Source of the DNA: Dictyostelium discoideum
Taxonomy: Eukaryota
Assembly: GCA_000004695.1 (NCBI GenBank)
Contig: CM000152.2
Coordinates: forward strand, 4,736,001-4,800,000
Direction of reading: 5' to 3'
Length of the DNA: 64,000 nucleotides
Numbering within the stretch: the first letter of the stretch is position 1; every line of letters starts with the position of its first letter. The position numbers were made by a program, and so were the translations under genes. Below the pieces are notes generated by a model that worked only from the letters and a program-made list of their open reading frames with translations, was not told the origin of the DNA and searched no databases. Of this stretch, positions 26,163 through 30,010 are shown piece by piece.

Positions 26163-26727
26163 GCATGGCCATAATATAGTAATAATAATATGCAATATGA
26201 TAGTATATATATATATTTTTTTTTTTTTTTTGTATTTCACTTGGCTTCTAACCTTTATTTATATTGTAAATTTGTATATATTAAAAAAAAAAAAAAAAAA
26301 AAACTACTAAATTAAAAAAAGTAATAAAAATAAAATAAATAAAATATAATTTCAATTATATGAATTATAATAAATTTGACAAAAAAGTATAGAATATTCT
26401 TTTAAAGCAAAATTTTATTTATTAATTATTATAATTTAAAGAATTCAAAGTAGAAAAAAAAAAATTAAGAAAATGGAAAACTGACATCATCGATAATAAA
26501 ATTATTATTAATAATTTTCATGTATAAAAAAAATAAAAAATAAAAAAATAAAAATCACAACTTAATAATATGATAATAAAAATTTTATTTGTAATATTAG
26601 TGGTTAATTTTATTTTAAATTTTTATTTTTTTATTTTAAAAATAATAATAATAATTTGTATAAAAAAAAAATAAAAACCAAAAATGTGGTTGAGGTGTTT
26701 AGTAAATTCCTCAAACAAAACCAAAAC

Positions 26728-26769
<42 letters not shown>

Positions 26770-26920
26770 TATTTTAAAATCCAACATAATTCCTGATTTG
26801 TAAAATTTTGTTATTTTTAGCTTATTAATTAATATGAAGTATTAATTTTTTTGAGATTCCACTAAAGTATTCAGATTATTATAATAATTTAAAAAAAGTT
26901 GTGTTTGGATTTCAATTCAG

Positions 26921-26972
<52 letters not shown>

Positions 26973-27089
26973 ATAATAATAATATATCCCATTTCTATTT
27001 TTAATAAAAAAAAATGATGTTTAATACCATAAATGGTGTTGTTTTTAATGGTGATGTTATTTGATTAGATTAAAAATTTTAAAATATTT

Positions 27090-27121
<32 letters not shown>

Positions 27122-28071
27122 TAGTTACTATCCAATAAATTAAAAGATAAAAAAGTGACTATAAAAATTAAAATTTATAAAAAAAATAAATATAAAATTA
27201 TTTTAAATTTTAAAATTGTTATTAATGTGGAATTTTGTAATTTTTAAGAGACACAATACTAAATACTAAAATAATTTCCATGGTGGTTTCGTAAAATAAA
27301 ATTAAATAAAATCCCCCAACAACTTACAAAATATTATTTTCAACTTGTAATTAAAAAAAGTGTAATATACTGAATATAGTCACACTCCAACATAAGGCTT
27401 ATTTTAGTAAATTAAAAATATTAAAAGATTTACTGTTGTGATGGTGTTAATGATGATGATGTTTTTTTAATAAAACAAATAAAATAAAATAAAATAAAAT
27501 TTATTTTATAAAAATGAAATAAAATAAAATTAAAAAAAATAAAATAAAAATGGATATCATTAATTAATTCAACACACATGCAAAAACACACACACCTAAA
27601 GAATTCTTCTTGTATTTTTATCTTTTTCACTCAAACTCACACTTTTTATCAAACTCTAAAATTTAAAAATTCACATACACCAAAAACACACAAACACACC
27701 CCCCAAAGTATATAAAAAAAATTTATTATTGTATACAAAAAAAAAAAAATATTATGTATTTATATTTTCGTCTTTTAATCTTTATAATTTTTATTTTAAA
27801 TTTAAACTCCACAAAAATGAAGAGTTTTATTCTTTTTTCTTTTTTTCACAATTGTTTGAATTGTGATAAAAATTATTTTTTTTTTTTTTTTTTTTTATAT
27901 TCTAAAAATGAACCATTATTAAAAAAACTTTATTCATTCTCTCACTTATTATATATATATATATATATGTTTATGAATATATATTTATTTTTATCATTTA
28001 TTCATTATAATAATATCTGTTAAAATAATTATTAAAAAAAAAGTCCATTTCATTGAATTCACCACATTTTT

Positions 28072-28107
<36 letters not shown>

Positions 28108-28179
28108 CTATTTAAATATCTTTTTCCATCCAAAATTATTTTTTGATATTTTAAATGCACCCGAGTGTGCATTATAGTT

Positions 28180-28440
28180 TGATTTTTATGGTGTGTGGTG
28201 GTGTGTGTGTGTGAGTGTATATAAGTGGAATATTTGAGTTTTTAAAACAATCTTTGAGCTGGTGTTGGATTATTGTTATTAAAACAAAAAATATAATTTT
28301 TTTTTACCAAAAAAGGCAATAATATGAATACGGTATTGTGTCTTTACATATTAAATTTACTTTTGTTTATCCTTACTTGTATGTTAAAGGTGTGTTTATG
28401 TGTGAATATATGTGTTAATTTATTCATCATTTAAATTAAA
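28180..28440. promoter_or_regulatory. GT-rich islands (TGTGTGG/GTGTGTGTG motifs) in the 3.8-kb intergenic desert. Their CA-rich counterparts lie at 27560-27720 and 28890-28960. They are candidate G-box/CA-element-type regulatory sequences.
   Basis: ggtgtgtggtggtgtgtgtgtgtgagtgtatataagtgg at 28188-28226, aaggtgtgtttatgtgtgaatatatgtg at 28385-28415 and gggtgcg…ggtgtgtggtgggtgac at about 28770-28825 stand out against the >85% A/T background. G/T-rich and C/A-rich boxes are known developmental promoter elements in Dictyostelium (GBF targets). The assignment is inferential. Confidence 0.25.
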
Positions 28441-29777
28441 AAAAAAAAAAAATTTTAAAAAATTGGATACACCCTTTAGTAAATATATGAGCTATTTTTG
28501 GGTTAAAAAAATAAAATAACTACTATATGAAAAAAAAAAAACACAAAGAGACATTTTTGTAGTGAATATCTTAAAATCCCGACATTGGAAATTATAATTA
28601 TTATTTTCGATTTATTTTTTCAATTATTCTTTTCCCATTCAATCCAACTCCTTTTTTTTTTTTGGGACTCAGTAAAATTTTATTTCCCACAATGTACTAC
28701 CTCTTATAATGTGCTTATATTTATGTTGTTTGTGCAAATGGTTGTGGGGTTTATGAAAAAATATGAGTGTGGGTGCGAATAAATTATTATATTTTTAAAT
28801 TAAGTTTAGGTGTGTGGTGGGTGACATTTTAATTTTGTTTTTTTTTTTTTTTTTTTTTTTTTTTATTAGTTTAAAAGTGGGAGTGCATGTACATATATAT
28901 ATAAGTGTGTTCTTTTTTAAACACGCGCACACACACACATTAACACACAAACACTTAAAACAACTAAAATATAATTATAAATATAATTATAAAATTATAT
29001 AAATAATATTGATATATATATGAATAATAAAATTTAATTTATTTATTTAAATAATTTTAAATTGTTTTATTAAAATCTAACTATTTATTTCATCATCAGA
29101 AAAAAAAAAAAAAAAAAATCAATCTATATTTTAATTGTGTCAATTTATTTTAACCATCATTTATCTATTTCAAGCAAATATACATTTTTCTATTTTTATT
29201 TTGTTTTTGTTTTTGTTTTGTTTTTTTTATAAAAATAAAACAAATAATTTTAATAGTAATTGGATTTTTTAAAATATCATTTTATTATTTTTTACTTACT
29301 AAAATAAATAAAATATAATATAATATAAAAAAAACATCATCAAATAATTTTAAAATTCCAAATAGTATTAACAACCCTCCCAATAATTTTTATATTTTAA
29401 TTTTTTTTTTTTTTTAACTATATAATTATTTTTAAAATAAAAAATCAAAAAAAAAAAAAAAATCATTTTTTTAAAACACATAAATAGAAAGATTTAATTT
29501 TTATAGTTTCAACACCACTACCCCATTACCACCAAATAATTTCTTTTTGTTTTTTTTTTTTTTTTTTTTTTTAGATCAATCATTGTTTATTTCAACCTTC
29601 TTATCAGTTGGTAGTATTAATAATTATCTATAAAATATATATTGTTATTATTTAATTTTTTTGATTAATTTTTTTTTTTTTTTTTTTTTTTTTCTTTTTT
29701 ATTTAAATTTAACCTTTTTTGGTATTATTGTTTTTGTTCACTTATTATTATTTTTTTAATATATCACTACAAATTTT

Positions 29778-29808
<31 letters not shown>

Positions 29809-30010
29809 TTTATTTAAAAAACAAAACCAATTTATTAAAAATATTTATTATTTCGTTTAGAGAAAAAAAAAAAAAAAAAAAATAAAATATTACTTGTGTT
29901 TAATTTTTTTTTTTTTTTTTTTAAATTAGGATTAAAAAAAAAAAAAAATAAAAAAATAAAATTATTTATTCCAATAAAAAAAAAATAAAAATAAAAATTA
30001 AATTAATAAA

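Follow-up and report, generated by a model that had tools for sequence, protein, structure and literature searches.

GBF-dependent post-aggregative promoters, such as those of the sigN genes and lagC and, classically, of cotC/SP60 and CP2, carry closely spaced motif clusters in either orientation and lie upstream of genes that act in multicellular development. Multi-kilobase modular promoters are also known from the Dictyostelium developmental genes ecmA and ecmB. The alternative promoters of srfA, as cited in PMC2257962, are likewise long, modular and developmental. In animals and plants, clusters of conserved non-coding elements (CNEs) occupy gene deserts, where a gene-free region of conserved non-coding blocks lies beside a developmental transcription-factor gene. 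Here, we describe the 3848-nucleotide (nt) spacer between ppme1 and the Myb gene mybC (DDB_G0281563) of Dictyostelium discoideum, which occupies positions 26163–30010 (plus strand) of a 64,000-nt stretch of contig CM000152.2 (the window, to which all coordinates refer unless another locus is named), and which probably constitutes a long modular cis-regulatory region together with the core promoter and 5′ untranslated region (UTR) of mybC.

As in the GBF-dependent promoters, closely spaced motifs in either orientation are clustered ahead of a gene with a role in multicellular development; unlike in those promoters, the mybC motifs lie 1.1–2.4 kb from the ATG, are embedded within imperfect microsatellites and are mostly not conserved base for base. 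With srfA, ecmA and ecmB, the spacer shares an unusually long upstream region with discrete elements beside a cell-type-specific regulator. The resemblance to animal and plant CNE deserts lies in the pairing of a developmental transcription-factor gene with a gene-free region of conserved non-coding blocks. In contrast to those deserts, the mybC spacer spans kilobases rather than hundreds of kilobases, and its conservation is detectable only in close group-4 relatives, with Polysphondylium violaceum and Tieghemostelium lacteum keeping the motif architecture only.

Both flanking genes are on the plus strand, ppme1 ending with a stop codon at approximately 26160–26162 and the Myb gene starting with its ATG at 30011, and the distance between them compares with a published average of ~700 bp for D. 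discoideum spacers. The mybC coding region (30011–31857, plus strand) comprises two exons (30011–31096 and 31201–31857), the splice junction having been read off the sequence. Published primers for quantitative reverse-transcription PCR of mybC match exactly at 31342 and, as the reverse complement, at 31648, whereas the published primers for mybM, mybN and mybAA have no match in the window. Thus, the spacer lies upstream of mybC, which is a developmental transcription factor. Its nearest named paralogue is MybN. To our knowledge, the regulation of mybC has not yet been dissected. Deletion of mybC leads to a slugger/culmination phenotype (PMC12088058), the gene is counted among the cell-type-specific transcription factors in a published list, and a transcription-factor survey places mybN, mybC and mybB within one clade.

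Orthologues of mybC were found by searching with the C-terminal half of MybC, and their loci were then compared. The set comprises two other assemblies labelled D. discoideum (L001 and L006), D. dimigraforme (L004), D. purpureum (L002, GL871655) and three distant loci, from P. violaceum (L003), T. lacteum (L005) and Acytostelium subglobosum (L007). The ppme1–mybC order is shared by L001 (3.9-kb spacer), L006 (3.9 kb), D. dimigraforme (3.8 kb), P. violaceum (2.5 kb) and T. lacteum (1.3 kb); the spacer is syntenic and of similar length in the first three and is unusually long also in D. dimigraforme, P. violaceum and T. lacteum. None of the annotations, three of them independent of one another, places a gene within it. 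In the public D. purpureum assembly, the mybC spacer is interrupted by the end of the contig, 148 nt ahead of the orthologue. No dictyostelid orthologues were recovered in protein searches that used fragments of ppme1 and BAG.

Within a 20-kb three-way alignment, the aligned-column identity to D. dimigraforme is 86.6% for the spacer, compared with 72–80% for six other spacers and 83–93% for gene bodies. With gaps and homopolymer runs left out, the spacer has accumulated 0.128 substitutions per site relative to D. dimigraforme, as opposed to 0.242 in the six other spacers (Fisher p = 8e-28), and the lower rate persists when A/T sites alone are considered. Four-fold degenerate sites of the flanking genes diverge by 0.248 from the same species. 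The rate is 0.162 in the left part of the spacer, 0.135 in the island core and lowest, at 0.080, in the last 1 kb before the mybC ATG (28961–30010, plus strand), the presumed core promoter and 5′ UTR. These values support purifying selection on the spacer, which evolves approximately half as fast as its neighbouring spacers. Substitution that is significantly slower than the local neutral rate, together with the lack of any conserved open reading frame (ORF), is the mark of a conserved non-coding element cluster. The original prediction, which was made from the letters of the window, had named conservation in other D. discoideum strains or D. purpureum as a check on its inference; the spacer is conserved in the two other D. 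discoideum assemblies and in D. dimigraforme. It had also allowed that the GT/CA runs might be strain-variable microsatellites only: the runs are indeed variable in length, but the spacer around them is constrained. L001 and L006 differ by ~3% from the window at aligned spacer sites and by only 1.4% from each other; the former figure seems high for conspecific strains.

The constraint resides mostly in AT-rich blocks that lie between and downstream of the CA- and GT-rich islands described below. Defining a block as at least 95% identity to D. dimigraforme over 60-column windows, the spacer contains ten blocks with a total of 972 nt, whereas 5.6 kb of other spacers contain a single block of 126 nt. 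The blocks include 26349–26491, the neighbouring pairs 27223–27289 and 27311–27413 as well as 27790–27875 and 27970–28074, a block at 28537–28646 with 105 of 111 positions identical, and the most conserved block at 28992–29198, where 200 of 207 positions are identical to D. dimigraforme at a GC content of just 11%. A further block (28288–28370) spans the start of an ORF that we consider spurious, such that it is the nucleotide sequence, rather than the reading frame, that is conserved. Some blocks are more conserved than synonymous coding sites.

The block at 27790–27875 holds a perfect 8-bp inverted repeat, TCACAATT-GTTTG-AATTGTGA (27846–27866), which is identical in all four close genomes, includes the motif TTGAATTG and looks like a dimeric transcription-factor site. 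In addition, the 11-mer AGACACAATAC (27246–27259) and its exact reverse complement GTATTGTGTCT (28333–28343) are placed 1.08 kb apart and are invariant in the same four genomes, with a third, partial copy, ATTGTGTC, at 29134; the pairing of the two 11-mers may have arisen by chance. Elsewhere in the window, the lone block of 126 nt with at least 95% identity to D. dimigraforme is located at 40769–40894, within the spacer 39114–41367, and has a GC content of 0.33; an unannotated exon and a regulatory element are both conceivable.

The spacer has no coding capacity. The absence of a credible long ORF between ppme1 and the Myb gene, as originally predicted, holds: the longest ATG-initiated ORF encodes 89 amino acids of low complexity and is not conserved, and all open frames of at least 40 codons are frameshifted or stopped in a relative, with the exception of one ATG-less stretch of 45 codons that sits inside a near-identical block. 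Nothing was found when the eight longest open frames in the spacer were scanned against Pfam, and a signal-peptide-like ORF beginning MKSFILF has its start ATG changed to ACG in L001. The Cys-rich ORF that had been singled out, for which the quoted peptide was correct, comprises 36 codons at 28324–28434 (plus strand) rather than 43. A +2-nt frameshift in L001 and L006 leaves 27 amino acids, indels in D. dimigraforme lead to 47, and the versions share only ~20 N-terminal residues. With frames broken in all three relatives and no Pfam match, a protein-coding gene, the Cys-rich ORF included, was rejected.

It is nevertheless conceivable that the ORF at 28324 encodes a hydrophobic micropeptide with the 20-residue N-terminus as its conserved part, since each of the four genomes has an ATG-anchored ORF of 27–47 codons at this site, with the shared sequence MNTVLCLY(I/T)LNLLL(F/S)ILTC and an A-rich context ahead of the ATG. 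However, the C-terminal parts are frameshifted and unrelated, conservation is equally high upstream of the ATG, and the shared part differs from D. dimigraforme by three codon changes, of which two are non-synonymous and one is synonymous. The composition, moreover, is as expected from translated GT- and AT-rich DNA, and there are no Pfam hits, all of which makes such a peptide very improbable.

GBF-type motifs were defined as (T/G)G(T/G)G(T/G)G(T/G) in either orientation, following the consensus in PMC2257962. Within a D. discoideum core (27540–28960) that was delimited after the data were seen, such sites occur at 7.0 per kb, compared with 1.6 per kb in the six other spacers pooled (p = 0.002), and they form ten site clusters. 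These include a trio at 28743, 28768 and 28809 within 80 nt, comprising TGTGGGG, TGTGGGT and GGTGTGTGGTGGGT, respectively. The corresponding G-box cluster (28729–28823) is the best candidate for a GBF-type module, and its first two G-boxes, TGTGGGG and TGTGGGT, are invariant in all four close genomes and thereby form exceptions among the generally variable islands.

A similar enrichment is observed upstream of the mybC orthologues of distant dictyostelids. Site densities are 7.7 per kb versus 1.2 per kb in neighbouring spacers for P. violaceum (19 versus 2 sites), 4.7 versus 1.0 per kb for T. lacteum (6 sites versus 6 in five times more neighbouring sequence) and 5.2 versus 1.9 per kb for A. 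subglobosum, with a combined p = 3e-4 when whole spacers are used. The P. violaceum spacer displays the same alternating CA-rich and GT-rich islands as that of D. discoideum; it spans 7526–10000 of L003, has a GC content of 29%, close to the ~30–31% of its flanking genes, and contains a longest ORF of only 110 amino acids. At the level of alignable sequence, nhmmer profiles of 13 conserved blocks yielded nothing significant in P. violaceum or T. lacteum, and of two metagenome scans with conserved 19–21-mers, one was empty and the other gave three matches, all in GC-rich contigs and attributable to chance. The data support a persistence of the G-box/CA-rich element (CAE) cluster upstream of mybC across dictyostelids by way of site turnover, in sequences that can no longer be aligned. 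As in GBF-regulated promoters, at least two closely spaced motifs are present and the cluster is kept at the orthologues, with GC content as a confounder. Together with evolution at half the rate, the clustering of GT/CA-rich motifs of a known developmental factor suggests that the spacer is most likely a large and fairly ordinary control region.

The islands within which many of these motifs lie stand out from a spacer with a GC content of 15.9% (84% A+T). The CA-rich and GT-rich islands that had been predicted are real and clustered at 27.57–28.95 kb, although the one at 28389–28416 is only weakly GT-rich, and Tandem Repeats Finder resolves them into imperfect di- and octanucleotide repeats of the (CA)n/(GT)n type. 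The first CA-rich island, an imperfect (CA)n run (27572–27596), is of strain-variable length, and the second (ACACACAAACACACCCCCC, 27672–27705) is present in the D. discoideum assemblies; neither occurs in D. dimigraforme. The GT-rich island at 28189–28220, an imperfect (GT)n microsatellite, is length-polymorphic, with its position kept in all four genomes, and the weak GT-rich island within the spurious ORF is ~23 nt longer in D. dimigraforme. Additional GT-rich islands are found at 28729–28776 and 28806–28823, and a further CA-rich island at 28919–28949. Single islands of this type are also scattered over non-coding sequence elsewhere in the window (21590–21616, 48252–48278 and 63018–63051), as does a CACCC-type island at 39727–39763 in the 2.25-kb spacer 39114–41367. 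Because similar islands occur singly in other spacers (at 21590, 39727, 48252 and 63018), it is their clustering that is unusual.

The opposite orientation of the CA and GT islands, together with run lengths that vary between strains, could be taken as traces of a transposable element with decayed inverted repeats, or of a neutral junk spacer with scattered microsatellites. A decayed inverted-repeat element had been among the original proposals, which also noted a loose resemblance of the reverse complement of 27655–27720 to 28180–28255. Poly(A)/poly(T) tracts dominated the output of a generic repeat finder, and a dedicated alignment was used for this question. The two segments align with a Smith-Waterman score of 29, which is reached by 18 of 500 shuffles, and the same GT island scores 28–32 when aligned with GT/CA islands from other, unrelated places in the window. 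Composition thus accounts for the resemblance, which leaves the proposed element unsupported. A transposon remnant with inverted terminal repeats was accordingly rejected, its terminal repeats being explained by composition and no protein similarity to a transposase being found. The spacer is, moreover, syntenic and alignable from end to end, evolves at half the neutral rate and lacks transposase-like ORFs. The comparative data already contradict both the transposon and the junk explanation, which we regard as very unlikely. The palindrome that had been described in this region, ATGCAC-CCGAGT-GTGCAT, is present, but ~3 nt away from the position given for it, at 28155–28172; it lies in a conserved block, and its 6-bp arms are unremarkable, one arm being imperfect (ATGTAC) in L001 and D. 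dimigraforme.

The main rival to a cis-regulatory function is transcription of the conserved core itself (~27200–29200), either as one or more unannotated long non-coding RNAs (lncRNAs) or from a distal, alternative mybC promoter whose 5′ UTR would be long and perhaps spliced, in which case the conservation would reflect RNA function or transcription-coupled regulation of mybC. The GC content of the core, 20.7% compared with 8–16% in other spacers, is consistent with this possibility, given that published lncRNAs have a median GC content of 17% as opposed to 13% for non-expressed spacer, and the constraint is as strong as in a gene body. Furthermore, a TATA-like TATATATAAG is followed by a T-run at 28893–28920, and similar arrangements come after the other islands; in D. 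dimigraforme, however, the distance from the TATA motif to the putative start differs by ~22 nt.

The paralogue mybB provides a precedent for such transcription. Like mybC, mybB (DDB_G0275445) is a clade-1 Myb gene with a multi-kilobase upstream spacer (5.5 kb; chr2:5704163-5709700, AX4) and an upstream neighbour on the same strand, but, unlike mybC, it appears in File S6 of Rosengarten et al. 2016 with two curated lncRNAs, CUFF_1509_1 and CUFF_1510_1. Both are on the strand opposite to mybB. In the same file, mybC (DDB_G0281563) is not the nearest neighbour of any curated lncRNA, and the supplements of published lncRNA and miRNA papers contain no sequence or identifier pointing to the mybC spacer. 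Inspection of the alignment revealed no conserved GT…AG intron boundaries, no Rfam family reaches threshold, and the mean fold z-score over 188 windows of the spacer is −0.15, so there is no pervasive structure. We consider a transcribed core to be somewhat unlikely, and a cis-regulatory region the better-supported reading.

Searches for specific classes of small RNA within the spacer were likewise negative. ARAGORN detected no tRNA, and on neither strand did a custom scan for box C/D snoRNAs detect a C box (RUGAUGA-like) paired with a D box (CUGA) 40–140 nt away. An octamer resembling the Dictyostelium upstream sequence element (DUSE), TCCCACAA (28685–28692, plus strand), is invariant in the four genomes, yet octamers of this kind ([AT]CCCA[CT]AA) are not enriched in the window, with 7 observed against 10.4 expected by chance, and no recognisable non-coding RNA follows downstream. 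In Class I RNA genes, the DUSE is found ~60 nt upstream of the RNA start, and the RNA has a terminal stem and an 11-nt motif. In the stretch that follows the octamer at 28685, visual inspection revealed nothing C-rich with which its G-run could pair into a terminal stem. This missing partner and the lack of a covariance-model match speak against a Class I RNA or other DUSE-driven small non-coding RNA.

The sole outlier in the folding analysis is an inverted microsatellite at 28876–28955 (minus strand; z = −4.8, ranging from −4.2 to −6.0), in which a TA/TG arm that includes TATATATAAG, a T-rich loop and a CA arm form a potential hairpin. All three relatives retain this potential for a hairpin or cruciform, even though the sequences and lengths of the arms have changed, and one might suppose that the hairpin is a functional unit, either as a minus-strand miRNA-like precursor or as a cruciform/Z-DNA promoter element. 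The Rfam scan of the spacer (E ≤ 10) returned only repeat-driven miRNA-like hits, all below threshold, namely to mir-297 (RF04217; 26.8 bits versus a gathering score of 90) and mir-1277 (RF04154; 20.8 bits versus 81). While these families likewise form hairpins of TG/TA and CA repeats, scores of 20.8–26.8 bits against gathering scores of 81–90 indicate a compositional resemblance and no homology. Adjacent (TG)n and (CA)n runs yield such hairpins trivially, the arm sequences were not found in the supplementary file of the D. discoideum miRNA survey, and the segment is among the least conserved by sequence, all of which renders a functional hairpin very improbable.

Returning to a cis-regulatory function, we envisage that about half of the spacer sites are under purifying selection, spread over many short AT-rich blocks that would represent transcription-factor binding modules and promoter/UTR sequence. 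The blocks would be separated by homopolymer runs and by imperfect (GT)n/(CA)n microsatellites of drifting length, and individual G-box/CAE sites would turn over while the cluster upstream of mybC stays. GBF or related factors may bind these motif sites, and the blocks would drive stage- and cell-type-specific transcription of mybC. A developmental enhancer/promoter for the Myb gene, one of the possibilities raised by the original prediction, thus finds support in the identity of mybC, the signature of purifying selection and the recurring GBF-type clusters. The emphasis that was placed on the islands is borne out in part: the motif clusters recur, but the highlighted islands are mostly the least conserved segments, and the constraint is found mainly in the AT-rich blocks.

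Several observations weigh against this interpretation. A regulatory function is inferred only from conservation and motif content, and a non-coding transcript or a long 5′ UTR would account for the constraint equally well. The islands show only 38–60% identity to D. dimigraforme, gaps included, their repeat numbers vary among the three D. discoideum assemblies, and two CA islands are absent from D. dimigraforme altogether. Over the whole D. discoideum spacer, the density of GBF-type sites is 2.6 per kb, which is not significantly above that of neighbouring spacers (p = 0.20), and the enriched core was chosen post hoc. The higher GC content of the P. violaceum spacer confounds its motif enrichment, and the footprinting rests on one species at a useful distance.

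Apart from the spacer, a segment of the window within the range of ppme1 (25722–25788) has a GC content of 0% and corresponds to a run of Tyr codons; 65 of 69 positions are identical to D. dimigraforme, which is unusually conserved for a simple repeat.

A broader possibility, which we put forward tentatively, is that the spacer represents a miniature regulatory gene desert, with a dense CNE cluster, partly under stronger constraint than synonymous coding sites, that includes unannotated non-coding transcription (an lncRNA or a distal promoter, as modelled upstream of mybB) and controls a culmination transcription factor. If true, the spacer would be an early and tractable example, in an amoeba that becomes multicellular by aggregation, of a CNE architecture like that of animals. 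As a long cis-regulatory region of mybC, the spacer would be the expected kind of regulatory DNA, albeit unusually long and well conserved, rather than a new class of element, and it would be of interest mainly to Dictyostelium developmental biologists. For this gene, which controls the transition from slug to fruiting body, the ten blocks of at least 95% identity and the invariant G-box pair provide a concrete map of candidate regulatory modules. The new close relatives make phylogenetic footprinting of the extremely AT-rich D. discoideum spacers feasible, and the locus appears to illustrate how a G-box/CAE motif cluster can persist ahead of a single gene in several dictyostelid groups through turnover of its sites, without the sequence itself being conserved.

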